Assembly: GCA_050015635.1 (NCBI GenBank)
Contig: JBEKBA010000002.1
Coordinates: 1 to 61,143, forward strand
Source of the DNA: Verrucomicrobiota bacterium
Lineage (GTDB): Bacteria; Verrucomicrobiota; Verrucomicrobiia; Limisphaerales; UBA11358
Direction: 5' to 3'
Length of the DNA stretch: 61,143 nt
Shown: positions 7,636-40,270 of the stretch, one piece after another
Position numbering within the stretch: the first letter of the stretch is position 1
Layout of the letters: every line of letters starts with the position of its first letter
Notes under the pieces: generated by a model
The model's database searches: none
What the model was told of the DNA's origin: nothing
What the model saw: the letters and a program-made list of their open reading frames with translations, nothing else
Translations under genes and position numbers: made by a program

Positions 7636-7709
7636 TGGAGCGGGCGAAGGGAATCGAACCCTCGTAACCAGTTTGGAAGACTGGCGCTCTACCATTGAGC
7701 TACGCCCGC
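7636..7709 (-). tRNA. tRNA-Gly (anticodon UCC), CCA encoded
   Basis: The reverse complement reads GCGGGCGTAGCTCAATGGTAGAGCGCCAGTCTTCCAAACTGGTTACGAGGGTTCGATTCCCTTCGCCCGCTCCA. It folds as a cloverleaf with a 7-bp acceptor stem, anticodon loop CTTCCAA and a GGTTCGATTCC T-arm. Confidence 0.9.
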
Positions 7710-24803: not shown

Positions 24804-24935
24804 TGGGACTGCTGCGCTCCCGTTTTTTGATTCCCGATTTCCTGGACCCCATCCACCATCCCTGGTGCCGCTAGGCGCATTGATTTCATGGTAGGGACCG
24901 GTGGCCGTCCGCAAGGACTTCCACCACGTCCCATT
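24804..24935 (+). repeat. Intergenic repeat family, copy A (~130 bp)
   Basis: Near-identical to 26083-26215 over ~103 bp (GCGCTCCCG..TTTTT.ATTCCCGATTTCCTGGACCCCATCC.CCATCCC...GCATTGATTTCATGGTAGGGACCGGTGGCCGTCCGCAAGG). It contains the internal hairpin GGGACCGGTGG...CCACCACGTCCC. Confidence 0.75.
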
Positions 24936-26082: not shown

Positions 26083-26215
26083 GGGACAGCGCGCTCCCGC
26101 TTTTTTATTCCCGATTTCCTGGACCCCATCCCCCATCCCCGCACCGTTCAGGTGCATTGATTTCATGGTAGGGACCGGTGGCCGTCCGCAAGGTGCTTCG
26201 GCGTCCACGCCGAAT
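26083..26215 (+). repeat. Intergenic repeat family, copy B (~130 bp), direct orientation relative to copy A
   Basis: See copy A. The shared core lies at 26091-26193. Confidence 0.75.
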
Positions 26216-34193: not shown

Positions 34194-35093
34194 ATGCTTG
34201 AAGATCGTGACTATATGCGCCAGCCGGCTTACCGTGAGTCGCGCGTCTCCTTCACGGTCGCGCTCCTGATTCTGTGCGCCATCGTCTTCGTCATCGAATG
34301 TATTGTCTGTGGCTACCCGCCGGCTTTTTCCGAAGGCAACTATTTCACGTTGAGTGTTGATGGACTGAAGCATGGCTTCGTCTGGCAGTTGCTGACGTAT
34401 CAATTCATGCACGCCGGATTGATGCATATTTTGCTCAATGGCTGGGCGATTTACATTTTTGGCCGCGCCATCGAGGAAACGCTCGGCGGCAAGAATTTCC
34501 TGATTCTGTTTCTAACCAGCGGAGTTATCGGCGGCTTGGTGCAAATGCTGGCCGCGTGGCTCTGGCCTGATTATTTCGGCGGCCCGGTCGTCGGCGCCTC
34601 GGCGGGCGCATTTGGACTGGTGGCGGCATTCGCGGTTTTGTTTCCGGAACGCGAACTGATGTTGCTCCTGTTTTTTGTTCTGCCGTTAAGGTTGCGCGCA
34701 AAAACCTTGTTGTGGTTTGCAGCCGCGCTGGCGGTGTTTGGCTTGGTTGTTCATGGCGACAACATCGCCAATGCGGCGCATTTGGGCGGAATGTTGACGG
34801 GCATTATCTTTATACGGCTGTTCATTCAAGGCCGCTGGCATTGGCCGCAATGGGGATTTCCGGAGCGCCGCGCCGCGCCGCGTGAATTTGTCGCTGCCGG
34901 ATCAGGCAAAAGCAAAGGTGGATTTTGGCGTTCCGCTGTGGGCAAATCCGACGACGATTCGTCCACCGACGAATTTTTGAAAAATGAAGTTGACCCGATT
35001 CTCGAGAAAATTTCCGCCCATGGCATCCAAAGCCTCACCGCGCGGGAACGCCAGATTCTCGAAAAAGCCCGCGCGAAAATGGCGAAACGTTGA
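34194..35093 (+). CDS. Rhomboid-family intramembrane serine protease
   Basis: HILLNGW (HxxxN), the GASAGAFGL catalytic Ser motif and AAHLGGM catalytic His, plus a soluble C-terminal extension. Confidence 0.85.
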   Translation: MLEDRDYMRQPAYRESRVSFTVALLILCAIVFVIECIVCGYPPAFSEGNYFTLSVDGLKHGFVWQLLTYQFMHAGLMHILLNGWAIYIFGRAIEETLGGKNFLILFLTSGVIGGLVQMLAAWLWPDYFGGPVVGASAGAFGLVAAFAVLFPERELMLLLFFVLPLRLRAKTLLWFAAALAVFGLVVHGDNIANAAHLGGMLTGIIFIRLFIQGRWHWPQWGFPERRAAPREFVAAGSGKSKGGFWRSAVGKSDDDSSTDEFLKNEVDPILEKISAHGIQSLTARERQILEKARAKMAKR

Positions 35094-35094
35094 A

Positions 35095-35195
35095 TTTTGA
35101 ACCTCAACCTATTCTCGACTCGCGCGAACGTCAGCGATTCCAATTTCATGGTAGGGACATTGGCCGGTGCGGCTCGCACTTCCACGTCGTCCCCG
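35095..35195 (+). repeat. Intergenic repeat family, diverged copy C
   Basis: The core ATTTCATGGTAGGGAC...GGCCG...CTTCCACGTCGTCCC (35142-35192) matches copies A and B, and the left part is only loosely similar. It fills the gap between the rhomboid stop and the stop of the 35197..35664 ORF. Confidence 0.5.
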
Positions 35196-35196
35196 T

Positions 35197-35664
35197 TCAG
35201 TTTTGTTCTCGCTCCCCGGAGCAATTTGGTATCTCACTCAGCGTCTCCCGCGTCTTCGTCACGTCATGCTTCAGGAATTGTAGTTGTTTGCCAATGCCTA
35301 AACCTTTCATTGGGATTTTGTAATCCCTGATGTGAGCCATCAAGTTGTCTCGATATATTTGCCCAGCGAGAAAAATAAAATGGTCATTCTTCACGTCGGT
35401 TTTTTCTTTGAGTTGAGCGGCAACCCCATTGGCCCATTCTTTTCGTTGTGCCGATGTCATCTCTTTGAGCGTAACGTCATAACGTTCTATCTCGGTTTCT
35501 AAATCAAGCAGACCATACTTGGCTGAAAGAATGAAAATGGCGTCAGGGTTTTGATTTCTCGTATATCGCAGGGCTAGTTTAAACCAAGGGCTAATGTATA
35601 AATCACCGGCCTTCGCCTTGGATCGTTTCGTTTTAACACAGGAAATCAGAACTATTGTCTTCAT
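35197..35664 (-). CDS. Hypothetical 155-aa protein with N-terminal 'LISCVKTK' motif (possibly DUF6884-like)
   Basis: MKTIVLISCVKTKRSKAKAGDLYISPWFKLALRY... It is the last gene of the R-M-like cassette. The family assignment is from memory only. Confidence 0.45.
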   Translation of the reverse strand: MKTIVLISCVKTKRSKAKAGDLYISPWFKLALRYTRNQNPDAIFILSAKYGLLDLETEIERYDVTLKEMTSAQRKEWANGVAAQLKEKTDVKNDHFIFLAGQIYRDNLMAHIRDYKIPMKGLGIGKQLQFLKHDVTKTRETLSEIPNCSGEREQN

Positions 35665-35677
35665 GGTTCAGGTTTGA

Positions 35678-35836
35678 TTAGACAAGTTCGCCCTCCTCTT
35701 TCGCCCGCTGCATTTTTGGTGTTTTGACTTTTGCGGTTTTGGCTTCTTCCGCTGCGCGTTCAAGATTCAGAGTGAGCAACTTTTCCAGAATATCGCGGAC
35801 GGCGAGCAGAATGATGCTTTTGACACTACGCTTCAT
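35678..35836 (-). CDS. Hypothetical 52-aa Lys/Glu-rich protein
   Basis: MKRSVKSIILLAVRDILEKLLTLNLERAAEEAKTAKVKTPKMQRAKEEGELV. Its ATG (35836-35834) overlaps the methylase stop as ATGA, suggesting translational coupling. Confidence 0.4.
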   Translation of the reverse strand: MKRSVKSIILLAVRDILEKLLTLNLERAAEEAKTAKVKTPKMQRAKEEGELV

Positions 35837-36795
35837 TTTGTGCGGTGCGATTTTTTCGCAACCGATGAAACTTTGTAAGCTGTCGGTTCTTCTCGAAAAA
35901 TTCCGCCATCTTCGACCCAATCAAGATTGCGACCAATTAACAATTCGTCCATCTCGGCGTGATGTGTGTTTTTCATCGCCACGGGTTTTGTCTTGAAGCC
36001 ATGTTGCTCGGCCAATGCGCGAACTTCTTCGGCATTGTCGTATGTCATCAGAAAATCTCCGCGCAGTTTTTCACAAACAGAAAAGAGATGCTCGTGGTCA
36101 ATTTCTGAATGTGTGTAAAGCCGCGAGCCAGCACGCTTGCCACCAGCGGTGTATGGCGGATCAATAAAAAATACGGCATCCCGCTCTTTCTGAAAACGAG
36201 CCAGCACGTCAAAAGCATCGCCGTGGATAAATTCAAGACGGTTTGCAACGTGTTCAATGTTTGTAATCCGTTTGGCAATCGTTTGCGGATACCAGCGCGA
36301 CAAAATTCCTTTTCCGTTCTCACCATTCTTTAGCACACCAGCACCTTCCGCCAAAATTCCGCCGTGTGCCGTCCGGTTTTTGAGGACTGTCTGGAATGCG
36401 CGTTCGCATTGTGACTTTGGAGATTTGGCAAACTCTGCTTTGGCGGATTCTGGCGACAAATCGAAATTCATTATTCGTTTGGCCAGCCATCGCGCATCGC
36501 CCGCAAGAATTGTCTGCCAGACAGCGGCAATTTGGTCATCGAGTTCAACCATGACGACGGAATCGGCAAGATGCTCAAATGCGGCAGTAAGACTGATAAT
36601 TCCGCCACCAGCAAAAGGCTCAACCAGAACTTTTGGCTGGCTCGGAAGGCTCATCATCCAACGACGGAAAAGTGGCACGAGCCAAGTCTTCCCGCCGGGA
36701 TAACGAAACGGGCTGCGTTGCGGCACAGACGCCACATTCACCGGCCTGTCACGTTCAACGAAGTCTGGTAATAAAAATGTTTGCGAGACGCTCAT
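35833..36795 (-). CDS. DNA N6-adenine methyltransferase, D12 class (Dam family)
   Basis: 320 aa with FRYPGGKTWL, EPFAGGG (motif I) and FFIDPPYTAGG (DPPY, motif IV). Confidence 0.85.
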   Translation of the reverse strand: MSVSQTFLLPDFVERDRPVNVASVPQRSPFRYPGGKTWLVPLFRRWMMSLPSQPKVLVEPFAGGGIISLTAAFEHLADSVVMVELDDQIAAVWQTILAGDARWLAKRIMNFDLSPESAKAEFAKSPKSQCERAFQTVLKNRTAHGGILAEGAGVLKNGENGKGILSRWYPQTIAKRITNIEHVANRLEFIHGDAFDVLARFQKERDAVFFIDPPYTAGGKRAGSRLYTHSEIDHEHLFSVCEKLRGDFLMTYDNAEEVRALAEQHGFKTKPVAMKNTHHAEMDELLIGRNLDWVEDGGIFREEPTAYKVSSVAKKSHRTK

Positions 36796-37673
36796 TTGCC
36801 AAAAGGATTTTCCAGTGTGCGATTTATTGGCGGCGTTTCCAGTTTCTCGTCAACTTTTTCCTGCAAGTGGCTGATAAAATCTTCCATTTTTCCGGGACGC
36901 GATTTTGTGATCTGATTCAATGCGGGTTCAAAACGTGTATAAACAATCCGCTCTCGGAATAATTCATATTGATCACCTGCATTTGCGGGCGGCTTCAAAT
37001 CATAAATCATCCAGGCAATGTCGGCTTTGTCTTTTACAACTTCCGGCAGCTTTGGCAGCGTGTTGAAAAACGCTTTATTGAGCGCGACGGCAGTTTTCTT
37101 GCCCCAGGCGTTGATAATTCCGCCCTTGAAAATTAATTGCGGAGCGAGCCGTTTTCGGGATGAAGATAAATAATCCGGTCGTGGATAATTGGCTTCGTTT
37201 GCCCAATCCATTTTACAATTTTTGGCCGGAGATTCCATGTAATGCTCAAACGGATTTCGCACGTTGCCTGAAATATACACAGCTTGAACTTCAAGCGCGC
37301 CGAAATCATAAACTTTCCCGGATTTATCGTAAGCACAGACAACAATGTCAATATTGCCCGCTGAACCTCCGTCGGCATCTTTCAGGCGAACTTCCGTGAG
37401 TGTTGTCCAGGTTGCATTCGGAGCGAAGAAAAAGTCCGCCGCATCATCGGCGATCATCCAGCTTTGACGAAAACGGATCGGACAGGTGATGACTACTTCG
37501 CCGTCGTGAAATACACTGCACACGCCGAGCGGATTTTGGGCTTTATCTTTTGTGCAATTCGGAACTTTATTGTTGAATGGGCAGAGACGTTTTGTCCGAT
37601 GGCGATTGGCCTTGGCACTCATGTCCGTTGTCGTAAAGCCGAAAACTTCTGCGAGTGGATGCTTTGTATTCAT
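36792..37673 (-). CDS. Type II restriction endonuclease, NotI-family-like
   Basis: 293 aa. The N-terminal LAEVFGF...CPFNNKVPNCTKDKAQNPLGVCSV...ITCPIRF matches the Cys4 metal-binding pattern of NotI (AEFFG..CPF..C.K..GVC..CP.R), and ALEVQAVYISGN matches NotI VLEIQTMDFHGS, as I recall it. The stop overlaps the methylase ATG (ATGA). Confidence 0.6.
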   Translation of the reverse strand: MNTKHPLAEVFGFTTTDMSAKANRHRTKRLCPFNNKVPNCTKDKAQNPLGVCSVFHDGEVVITCPIRFRQSWMIADDAADFFFAPNATWTTLTEVRLKDADGGSAGNIDIVVCAYDKSGKVYDFGALEVQAVYISGNVRNPFEHYMESPAKNCKMDWANEANYPRPDYLSSSRKRLAPQLIFKGGIINAWGKKTAVALNKAFFNTLPKLPEVVKDKADIAWMIYDLKPPANAGDQYELFRERIVYTRFEPALNQITKSRPGKMEDFISHLQEKVDEKLETPPINRTLENPFGK

Positions 37674-37935
37674 TTGAAGTTGTCACAGTAGTAGAGCGTG
37701 TCCATGCCGCGATTTTGCGCGGGAAATTCGCCACCGTCAATCCACCATCTGAAATGCAAAAAAACGTTCTGTTAAATGCAGGACACCCACGCCCGACAAT
37801 TGCCAATCGCAGCTTTTCCCATCATTCCGTAAACCCGCTGCTGCAATCGCGCTGGCTGGAAACGCGGGGTTTTGTGCCGGCAACGGCCCGGTAGTTCAGG
37901 CTTTTAATTTTTCCTTTTTCGTTTTTAATTCCCCC

Positions 37936-39273
37936 ATGATTACGCGCTATTCCCGGCCGGAAATGCGGGCCATCTGGACGGATGAAAACAAGCTCCGCAT
38001 CTGGCTGCAAATCGAACTCCTCGCCAGCGAAGCGCTGGTTGGGGAAGGGATCGTGCCCAAGGCCGATTTCGCTAAAATGAAAACTGGCGCGGAGAAATGT
38101 TTGGCGGATACGAAAGCCTTGGCCGCACGCGCGAAGGAATTGGAAAAGACGCTCAATCACGACGTCATCGGATTCACGACGGCCGTCGTCGAAAAAATAA
38201 ATGACCGCGCCGGCCGCTGGCTGCATTTCGGTCTGACCAGCAGCGACATCGGCGACACCGCGTTCGCCGTTCAAATGACGCAGAGCGCGGATATTCTCAT
38301 CTCCGACGCAAGGCAATTGCTGCCGGTCATCGCCCGCCGCGCGAAGGAATACAAATTCACGCCCTGTATCGGGCGCAGCCACGGCATCCACGCCGAGCCG
38401 ACGACGTTTGGTTTGAAACTTGCCCTCATGCGCGACGAATTTGGCCGCGCTCTGGAACGCCTCGAGCGCGCGCGCAAGGTCGTCGCCGTCGGAAAAATTT
38501 CCGGTGCTGTCGGCACGAGCGCGCATTTGTCACCGCGCGTGGAAAAATTTGTCTGCAAAAAACTCGGGTTGAAGCCCGCGCCCATCGCCACGCAAGTGGT
38601 TCAGCGCGACATCCACGCCGAGTTCATGAGCGCGCTCGCCCTCGTCGGCGCGAGCATGGAGCGTTGGGCGGTCGAGTTCCGCCACCTCCAGCGCACGGAA
38701 GTGCTCGAAGCCGAGGAACCGTTCACGAAAGGCCAAAAGGGCTCAAGCGCCATGCCGCACAAACGCAATCCCATCACTTGGGAACGCCTTACCGGCCTCG
38801 CCCGCGTGCTCCGTGGCAACGCCGTCGCCGCGCTGGAAAACGTCGCCCTCTGGCACGAGCGCGACATCAGCCACAGTTCCGTTGAGCGGATTATTTTCCC
38901 CGATTCCTGCACGCTCCTCGACTACATGTTCGACCTGCTCACGCGCCTGATGGAGGGTCTCGTCGTCTATCCGGCGAACATGAAAAAGAATCTCTGCCTC
39001 TCGCTCGGCATGTGGAATTCACAGACCGTTTTACTCGCATTGATCAAAAAAGGCCTGACGCGCGAAGAGGCTTACGACCTCGTCCAGCGCAACGCGATGA
39101 AAACGTGGGAAGTCAAACACGCCGGTCGCGACGACGCGGATTTTCTCGAAATCCTGAAAGCCGACCCGGACGTGGCAGGGCATTTCCAGCAGGGTGAACT
39201 GGAAAAACTCTGCTCGCTTGACTTCCATTTCAAGGAAGTGAAGAGCCGGTTCAAAAAATTGGGACTGAACTAA
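37936..39273 (+). CDS. purB: Adenylosuccinate lyase
   Basis: 445 aa with MITRYSRPEM start and GSSAMPHKRNP signature loop. Confidence 0.95.
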   Translation: MITRYSRPEMRAIWTDENKLRIWLQIELLASEALVGEGIVPKADFAKMKTGAEKCLADTKALAARAKELEKTLNHDVIGFTTAVVEKINDRAGRWLHFGLTSSDIGDTAFAVQMTQSADILISDARQLLPVIARRAKEYKFTPCIGRSHGIHAEPTTFGLKLALMRDEFGRALERLERARKVVAVGKISGAVGTSAHLSPRVEKFVCKKLGLKPAPIATQVVQRDIHAEFMSALALVGASMERWAVEFRHLQRTEVLEAEEPFTKGQKGSSAMPHKRNPITWERLTGLARVLRGNAVAALENVALWHERDISHSSVERIIFPDSCTLLDYMFDLLTRLMEGLVVYPANMKKNLCLSLGMWNSQTVLLALIKKGLTREEAYDLVQRNAMKTWEVKHAGRDDADFLEILKADPDVAGHFQQGELEKLCSLDFHFKEVKSRFKKLGLN

Positions 39274-39277
39274 ACCT

Positions 39278-40270
39278 ATGATGTATTCACCCGCTCCAAA
39301 TCGTTATGACTCGCCGCAATTTTACCGCCGTTGCGGTCGCTCCGGCGTCATGCTCCCGCTCATTTCGCTGGGGTTGTGGCATAACTTCGGCGCAAAGGAT
39401 TCGTTCGACAACGCCCGCGCCATCGCCTGCCGCGCGTTTGATCTGGGCGTCACGCATTTTGATCTGGCCAACAACTACGGTCCGCCGGACGGTTCGGCGG
39501 AGGAAACTTTTGGCCGCATCCTGCGCGAAGACTTGGCAAAGTGGCGCGACGAACTGATTATTTCCACCAAGGCGGGTTATTATATGTGGCCCGGTCCTTA
39601 CGGCGAATGGGGTTCGCGCAAATACCTCCTGTCGTCGCTCGACCAATCGCTGCGCCGCATGGGTCTTGAATACGTGGACATCTTCTATTCCCACCGGCCC
39701 GACCCCGACACGCCGCTGGAGGAAACGATGGGCGCGCTCGCGCACGCCGTCCGCAGTGGCAAGGCGCTTTACGCCGGAATCTCGAATTATCAACCCGCCG
39801 AAACCGCACGCGCAACGAAGATTCTGCGCGAACTGGGCGCGCCGTGCCTCATCCATCAGCCGCGTTACAGCATGTTCGACCGTTGGATTGAATCGCAACT
39901 GCTCGCCACCCTGGAACAGGAAGGCGTCGGCAGCATCGTCTTCTCGCCGCTCGCGAAAGGATTGTTGACCGACCGTTATTTCAATGGCATTCCCGCCGAT
40001 TCGCGCGCGGGGCATGATAAAAGATTTCTCCGTCCGGCGGACATCACCGAAACGGTGCTGGCAAAGACGAAAAAGCTAAACGACCTCGCGCAAGCGCGCG
40101 GGCAATCACTGGCGCAGATGGCGCTGGCGTGGGTGCTGCGGCACAAAACGGTGACAAGCGCGCTCATCGGCGCGAGCCGCGTGAGCCAGGTGGATGATTG
40201 CGTGGGCGTGATGCGTAACCTGATTTTCACGAGCGAAGAACTTGTGCGCATTGAACAAATCCTCGCGTAA
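39278..40270 (+). CDS. Aldo/keto reductase (YghZ / Kv-beta-like subgroup)
   Basis: 330 aa with FDLANNYGPPDGSAEE, GISNY and SALIGASR motifs. Confidence 0.85.
   Translation: MMYSPAPNRYDSPQFYRRCGRSGVMLPLISLGLWHNFGAKDSFDNARAIACRAFDLGVTHFDLANNYGPPDGSAEETFGRILREDLAKWRDELIISTKAGYYMWPGPYGEWGSRKYLLSSLDQSLRRMGLEYVDIFYSHRPDPDTPLEETMGALAHAVRSGKALYAGISNYQPAETARATKILRELGAPCLIHQPRYSMFDRWIESQLLATLEQEGVGSIVFSPLAKGLLTDRYFNGIPADSRAGHDKRFLRPADITETVLAKTKKLNDLAQARGQSLAQMALAWVLRHKTVTSALIGASRVSQVDDCVGVMRNLIFTSEELVRIEQILA

Follow-up and report, generated by a model that had tools for sequence, protein, structure and literature searches.

A defence islet of a Verrucomicrobiota bacterium, probably built by gain and loss around one Type II restriction-modification system

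The restriction endonuclease NotI is reported to hold Fe in a Cys4 motif and to have a glutamine in place of the lysine of the PD-(D/E)XK motif (PMC4081073). The Pfam 2024 paper describes the DUF6884 family as distantly related to YaaA; its members bear the motifs CxxxK and LSAxxG and have a basic cleft. The positively charged cleft is proposed to bind DNA and to accompany a putative active site for base flipping, and the paper cites the lesion pull-down of B. subtilis YfjM as well as an AlphaFold3 model in which a base is flipped (PMC11701544). In a full-text literature search DUF6884 is discussed only in that paper. The candidate PDC systems, 145 in number, were predicted by "guilt-by-embedding" in BREX, DISARM and Type I restriction-modification (R-M) systems (bioRxiv 10.1101/2024.01.29.577857), and a full-text search for one of them, PDC-M57, returned no paper. 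Relatives of NotI and of PDC-M57 are found together in a cassette of four open reading frames (ORFs) between the rhomboid and purB genes of a Verrucomicrobiota bacterium (GenBank assembly GCA_050015635.1, contig JBEKBA010000002.1). The whole stretch analysed, 61,143 nucleotides (nt) of this contig, is called the window.

The four co-directional minus-strand ORFs that an initial annotation of the window had listed are confirmed in the ORF list and the sequence, and its family calls of NotI, MethyltransfD12 and DUF6884 are borne out by Pfam (Table 1). The locus is likely a small defence islet that arose from successive gain and loss around one Type II R-M system, and not a four-gene machine. It consists of three butt-joined segments of separate ancestry: an R-M module, the 3′ stump of a Type IIG R-M gene, and a 3′-clipped gene for PDC-M57A. 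The mosaic junctions lie at ~35832-35791, 35678-35669 and 35269/35268.

Table 1. Features in and around the cassette, in window positions (aa, amino acids).
Feature	Position	Strand	Basis or remark
Host repeat copy, core ATTTCATGGTAGGGAC	35143..35200	.	Forms a GGGAC...GTCCC hairpin; the rhomboid and DUF6884 genes converge on it
Lineage-specific insertion, 2.8 kb	35126..37935		Between rhomboid (stop 35093) and purB (ATG 37936)
Promoter-like TTGACG-17-CAAAAT	37712..37740	-	Upstream of the nuclease, in the R-M part common to relatives
NotI-family Type II restriction endonuclease, 293 aa	36792..37673	-	Pfam NotI, 1.6e-60
D12-class (Dam-like) N6-adenine DNA methyltransferase, 320 aa	35833..36795	-	PF02086, 1.6e-13
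52-aa ORF	35678..35836	-	Residues 16-52 (35681..35791): 3′ relic of an MmeI-like Type IIG R-M gene
DUF6884/PDC-M57A gene, 155 aa, begins MKTIVLISCVKTKRSK	35197..35664	-	Pfam DUF6884 (PF21818), 1.1e-44
DUF6884 gene subdivision	35269..35669, acquired part; 35197..35268, non-native 23-codon tail	-	DNA homology limits

The cassette fills the gap between rhomboid and purB, as had been stated, and empty sites in relatives show that it is inserted there. The rhomboid-purB spacer is 57 nt in loci L181 and L182, with rhomboid proteins 90% identical to that of the window, and 102 nt in L185 (78% identical). Since the spacers of these relatives are so short, the interval is counted as an insertion. The alignment to the empty-site relative L181 breaks off at 35125 and restarts precisely at the ATG of purB. 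When the window rhomboid was looked up by exact sequence, the same contig was the only match, so that no empty site came from this look-up. The cassette had also been called richer in AT than its flanks; the GC content of the inserted interval is 47.8% versus 55-56% in the flanks on both sides, the lowest value among 292 sliding 2.8-kb windows over the whole 61 kb. The insert is foreign, low-GC DNA in one Verrucomicrobiota lineage, and by these comparisons it is a true insertion specific to that lineage.

In the initial annotation, the 52-aa ORF and the DUF6884 gene were regarded as riders whose conserved-looking coupling to the R-M genes suggested a composite defence module, a new controller, or a second system hitch-hiking on the R-M operon; riders not conserved with the R-M pair in homologous loci were, from the outset, to count against this proposal. 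A neighbourhood comparison was run, and the riders are not conserved, the very outcome that had been set as refuting. In 80 metagenome loci that encode relatives of the NotI-like nuclease, tblastn with either rider as query gave no match at E <= 0.01. Both are absent even from L100-L102, whose nuclease and methylase are 88-92% identical to those of the window. Conversely, 81 loci of DUF6884 relatives have, within ~6 kb, no homolog of either R-M protein or of the 52-aa ORF. The nuclease-methylase pair is itself intact and conserved as a pair, with the methylase directly downstream of the nuclease in 74 of these 80 loci; in the others the contig ends or the nuclease is truncated. Thus the R-M call was right, and the coupling of the riders is not a conserved feature.

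The first three junctions had been described as ATGA overlaps, with a final gap of 13 nt. Four genes have three junctions; two are ATGA overlaps, at 36792-36795 (nuclease/methylase) and 35833-35836 (methylase/52-aa ORF), and the third is the 13-nt gap. The ATGA that ends the methylase was already present in its family and is seen in ~15 of the ~70 relatives examined. It is followed there by unrelated ORFs, or, in L103, L104 and L108, by no ORF of at least 30 aa (the L108 contig ends 17 nt past the stop). The tight spacing would be due to the butt-joining of the segments and is not evidence of a four-gene unit.

A composite module, in which the R-M pair is joined by a sensor or effector (DUF6884) and a controller (52-aa ORF), coupled and selected as a unit, would account for the co-directional ORFs with their two overlaps and 13-nt gap, and for the lack of any predicted terminator-like site between the four genes. 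The 14 contigs in which the exact DUF6884 protein is encoded also share one and the same gene arrangement. However these 14 contigs represent one clonal population, with at most one single-nucleotide polymorphism (SNP) in 3 kb among the ten contigs compared. In addition, every junction in the cassette is an abrupt end of homology to unrelated sources, and the putative controller has the features of a gene stump, as described below. Together with the zero counts in both comparison sets, this makes such a module extremely unlikely.

The nuclease scores 204.8 bits against PF12183 (cut-off 22) and covers profile positions 5-238 of 238. It has more than 6000 homologs, the best of which are 70-88% identical. 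In 24 nuclease homologs the residues C31, C40, C52, C64, D109, E128 and Q130 are invariant, the last three in the pattern D109...E128-V-Q130; no residue-level alignment with NotI was obtained. The AlphaFold model is mediocre, with a predicted local distance difference test score (pLDDT) of 62.8 and values below 50 in the Cys region. NotI (chain 3bvq_B) is nevertheless the only Foldseek match of this model in the PDB at E <= 0.001 (E 4.5e-5, probability 1.00, TM 0.41). The link of the nuclease to NotI comes from the Pfam profile and the fold search only.

The methylase displays motifs of N6-adenine methyltransferases, the SAM-binding FxGxG as EPFAGGG (residues 59-65) and the catalytic DPPY (211-214), and resembles a solved adenine methyltransferase, PDB 7m6b (5e-9). 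Among PADLOC models it matches PD-Lambda-5_B (1.9e-40) and MTase_II (1e-25). DNA homology of the R-M module to its relatives spans from ~37746, at most, to ~35832; the upstream limit is 37746 in L101 and 37743 in L110. The promoter-like sequence in Table 1 lies within this part and is the sole sigma-70-like match in 34900..38100, as a match to the consensus only. The nuclease and the methylase form a Type II R-M module that is intact and includes an upstream region of its own, and the pair is the only component of the cassette with a well-supported mechanism. The methylase would protect host sites and the nuclease would cut unmethylated incoming DNA. Since the partner methylates adenine, the target site should contain an A and could not be the GCGGCCGC of NotI; the nuclease would thus not be a NotI isoschizomer.

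Two further observations concern the nuclease gene. The public annotation of this contig lists a 79-aa minus-strand ORF (window 37567-37806; L001, 5771-6010) as a gene. The ORF overlaps the nuclease start in another frame, has no family match and is probably a spurious call. In L134 and L135 (5001-5657), NotI-like nuclease copies that are 92% identical match residues 4-222 only, and no methylase was detected on these 10-kb loci. These are apparently decayed R-M copies.

The ATG of the 52-aa ORF is embedded in the AAATGA stop context of the methylase. No Pfam or NCBIfam match is found for this ORF, and no helix-turn-helix (HTH), a feature of the R-M controller C proteins. A phmmer search against 1.84 billion representatives gave 35 matches at E < 1e-3, with 58-74% identity over ~40 residues, and nearly all fall at the extreme C-terminus of the target. 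Five targets were scanned. PADLOC assigns every one of them to the C-terminal part of an MmeI-like Type IIG enzyme (REase_MTase_IIG, E down to 1.2e-52, and also DrmMI), and the Pfam matches, weak and all below the gathering cutoff, are to MmeI_C on four of the five and to MmeI_TRD on one. The tblastn similarity is limited to 35791..35681, which represents the last 37 codons and the native stop. The first 15 codons have no homolog. The upstream parts of the tail-bearing proteins match nothing in the window, in any frame, at E <= 1, and the nuclease, helical, gamma-methyltransferase and target-recognition domains that precede the C-terminal domain in Type IIG enzymes are absent from the window. 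The 52-aa ORF is thus, by sequence comparison, the 3′ stump of an MmeI-like Type IIG R-M gene, and not the controller that had been suggested. Ribosomes that finish the methylase could reinitiate at the ATG of AAATGA and produce a 52-aa peptide, which would be a by-product without a domain.

It might be argued that the 52-aa ORF is a genuine microprotein, e.g., a coiled-coil adaptor derived from a Type IIG enzyme that modulates the methylase or the nuclease. The ORF reads in frame from an ATG that is coupled to the stop of the methylase, its tail motif is well conserved in the parent family, and in L115 the same methylase is followed by a similar tail ORF, of 74 aa. However the ORF is absent from the closest R-M relatives, L100-L102 (92% identity), its start is without a homolog, and the conserved segment is the last ~40 residues of parent enzymes of ~1000 aa (PADLOC model lengths 959-1136). 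The L115 tail comes from a different Type IIG subfamily and thus represents an independent stump. A microprotein is, on balance, hardly credible here.

Two other possibilities were considered and rejected. A frameshifted C-terminal extension of the methylase does not fit, as the methylases of relatives stop at the same place and the homologs of the ORF are Type IIG tails. Type IIG genes are also not the usual upstream neighbours of DUF6884 genes, as none of the DUF6884 loci yielded a homolog of the tail.

Stumps after the methylase are found elsewhere. In L115 (2788-3009) the R-M module is followed, via ATGA, by a Type IIG C-terminal tail (..LVYELYGLTEDEIKLVEG), and in L126 (2520-3395), also via ATGA, by the C-terminal part of a Type II methylase. 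Such cases suggest recurrent landing of the module on resident R-M genes, or recurrent replacement of these.

The third segment is the DUF6884 gene. The 155-aa protein matches the PADLOC model PDC-M57A (PDLC04712) at 6.1e-54 over profile positions 1-136 of 138, with weak matches to DpdC (1.3e-5). Both motifs of the family are present, CxxxK as C9-VKT-K13 and LSAxxG as L46-S-A-KY-G51. The AlphaFold2 model, of a YaaA-like alpha/beta fold, has a pLDDT of 83.5, and its top PDB match is YaaA (5caj, E 7.5e-4); a DUF6884 profile gave chance-level matches only against PDB sequences. The gene would encode a YaaA/DpdC-like DNA-binding, probably base-flipping, protein that has been severed from its GIY-YIG partner, component B.

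The severing can be located by DNA alignment. The sequence is 82-87% identical to L092, L097, L098 and L011, and only from 35669, 5 nt before the ATG, to 35269. The identity ends abruptly at CTGAAG, 15 nt before the stop codon of the relatives and 10 nt before the start of their B gene. The tail that follows has a GC content of 54%, which is host-like, versus 42% in the gene body, and residues 141-155 have pLDDT values below 50 and are predicted to be disordered. In 67 of the 81 related loci a gene B of ~212 aa overlaps A by 4 or 8 nt or is fused to it, and each of the 32 copies of this gene that were tested proved to be PDC-M57B (E down to 1.6e-106). The four closest relatives (72-81% identity) all have a downstream gene that overlaps by 8 nt. 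In three of these four, GIY_YIG_3 is the precomputed Pfam annotation of B. In the fourth, L098/L099, the contig breaks off within the gene, which bears no label, and the start of this gene matches the B genes of the others.

Gene B is absent from the window. A B-family hidden Markov model and tblastn, applied to all six frames of the 61 kb, gave nothing better than E 0.06, and no degraded B was found; between the DUF6884 stop and rhomboid there are only ~100 nt. The suggestion of a second system hitch-hiking on the R-M operon thus holds in one part, in that DUF6884 represents one component, A, of a different candidate system, and fails in the other, in that the partner, which looks obligate, is missing and the 3′ end of A itself is cut. 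The DUF6884 gene is probably co-transcribed passively from the R-M promoter. As a PDC-M57 system the cassette copy is incomplete, and it is most likely inert or decaying.

Could the orphan DUF6884 protein still work alone? It would then be a factor that binds or processes DNA lesions or modified bases and hitch-hikes on the R-M transcript, and it would perhaps widen protection or repair self-damage. Consistent with this, the model is confidently YaaA-like, and loci with A only are found in other genomes, sometimes with an AGOG-like glycosylase or an HNH gene beside A. Against it stand the overlapping or fused B in the four closest relatives and most of the clade, the replacement of the native C-terminus by a disordered read-through tail, and the fact that DUF6884 is never found with this R-M in the other loci compared. 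The window protein also differs at near-invariant positions, with A35T and an R for the P of the EIEPY motif. The ratio of nonsynonymous to synonymous substitution rates (dN/dS) is raised, 0.30-0.51 for the window gene versus partnered relatives and 0.15-0.27 among partnered relatives, a difference that is suggestive only, as it is based on five sequences and averages the time before and after the loss of B. Independent function of the orphan is considered unlikely.

Several observations weigh against the view of the locus as an islet with an inert remnant of PDC-M57. The DUF6884 ORF is intact, with all clade-invariant residues kept and a dN/dS below 1. Gene B is absent in 13 of 80 related cellular loci with enough room for it, and in 24 of 25 more distant phage-borne copies on viral contigs, so that a function of A alone is possible. 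The search for B covered the 61 kb of the window, and B could sit elsewhere in the genome. As the population is clonal, its contigs give no direct test of selection on either rider. For the R-M module, the nuclease has no match by sequence among PDB chains, either as a single query or as a 24-sequence profile, and its low-confidence model gives no residue-level equivalence to the NotI active site.

The B-less loci contain other recurrent neighbours of DUF6884. Genes there encode an AGOG-like N-glycosylase/DNA lyase, which overlaps (L067, 6416-7210), an HNH_2 endonuclease (L022, 6584-7750) and a DUF7225 protein (L015, 4943-6001). In B-less loci of Chloroflexota (L023, L039, L064, L065 and L086), a ~250-aa family without a Pfam match lies upstream of DUF6884, overlapping or closely abutting it. 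These neighbours may be alternative partners for the same DNA-reading module. In L018, L025, L046, L069, L072 and L088, DUF6884 and the PDC-M57B domain are fused in single ORFs of ~350 aa, which supports a physical A-B complex in intact PDC-M57. In agreement with the embedded setting from which the PDC systems were predicted, intact A and B pairs of other genomes adjoin BrxL, a Type I S subunit and PDC-S41.

It may also be proposed that the DUF6884 protein was kept after the loss of its partner as a stand-alone base-flipping reader of DNA, expressed from the R-M operon, which recognizes damaged or hyper-modified bases in incoming DNA, or restriction nicks, and alters the outcome of restriction. 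This is very doubtful. If true, it would be the first functional link of a YaaA/DpdC-like protein with a classical Type II R-M system.

For the islet proper, turnover of a defence island is the most economical history, and two courses of it would lead to the present arrangement. An older islet with a Type IIG gene and PDC-M57 could have been overwritten by the NotI-like R-M module, with a deletion in addition. Alternatively, a 2.5-kb fragment of such an islet could have been gained in one piece.

The edge of the cassette had been reported to touch a copy of an intergenic repeat. The 16-nt core ATTTCATGGTAGGGAC is indeed exact at 35143-35158, and occurs also at 24883 and 26160; none of 100 shuffled sequences reached at least three copies. 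Beyond the core, the copy at the cassette shows only a loose resemblance to the other two, which are part of a 103-nt repeat (24814-24916 and 26091-26193) with 88% identity. The copies at 24883 and 35143 form GGGAC...GTCCC hairpins with different inner stems. That at 35143 is found just past the DUF6884 stop, with a fold z-score of -2.4 on the minus strand. No Rfam family matches the repeat, which may act as a terminator or be an element like the repetitive extragenic palindromes (REP).

An Rfam scan gave no match in or near the cassette; the only match in the window is a tRNA gene at 7639-7709 on the minus strand. On the other side of the insertion, an aldo-keto reductase gene is found directly after purB (window 39278-40270, and likewise in L001 in its own coordinates). 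The 90% relative L181 does not have it there, and purB is followed by rpmH. The aldo-keto reductase is a second lineage-variable gene at the rhomboid-purB locus.

The locus carries a caution, as ATGA overlaps and tight spacing in a defence islet can come from butt-joined fragments of unrelated systems. Any proposal of a composite system should therefore wait until its rider genes have been compared with related loci. The locus also illustrates R-M turnover in nature, with one R-M module on the stump of another, as has occurred independently in L115 and L126. It adds a well-populated clade in which nucleases of the NotI fold are paired with an adenine methylase and whose site should differ from that of NotI. 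Finally, it draws attention to the widespread candidate pair PDC-M57 (DUF6884 and GIY-YIG), of which the intact copies elsewhere, and not the broken one described here, are those that matter.

Among known systems, the two-gene, R-M-like PD-Lambda-5 of PADLOC is similar in its methylase, by the match to PD-Lambda-5_B given above. The window nuclease has no match to PD-Lambda-5_A at E up to 1, so that the likeness is that of the Dam-like methylase only. The MmeI-like Type IIG (IIL) R-M enzymes, and the related DISARM methylase DrmMI, share the extreme C-terminal tail of the family with residues 16-52 of the 52-aa ORF, but only 37 of their ~1000 residues are kept in the window.

PDC-M57, a candidate system in which A is DUF6884 and B is GIY_YIG_3, is matched by the 155-aa protein as component A, and the position beside R-M genes is its typical setting. 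It differs in that the window has no component B and the 3′ end of the A gene is replaced; half of a candidate system is present. YaaA (DUF328) and DpdC, the latter from the dpd 7-deazaguanine DNA-modification cluster, are similar in fold (5caj is the top match) and in the weak PADLOC matches to DpdC. However the window DUF6884 protein is about half their size, belongs to another Pfam family and has no dpdA or dpdB neighbours, and its chemistry is only putative.

The closest comparison is with the NotI-family (PF12183) Type II R-M systems. The window nuclease is shorter, 293 aa versus 352 residues for the NotI chain 3bvq_B, and is paired with a Dam-like N6-adenine methylase, which would imply a target that contains an A and is not GCGGCCGC. 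The likeness is in the separate nuclease and methylase genes, in the strong Pfam match and in the only significant PDB fold match. As a pattern, the four invariant cysteines and the D...E-x-Q of the window nuclease agree with the published description of NotI (PMC4081073).

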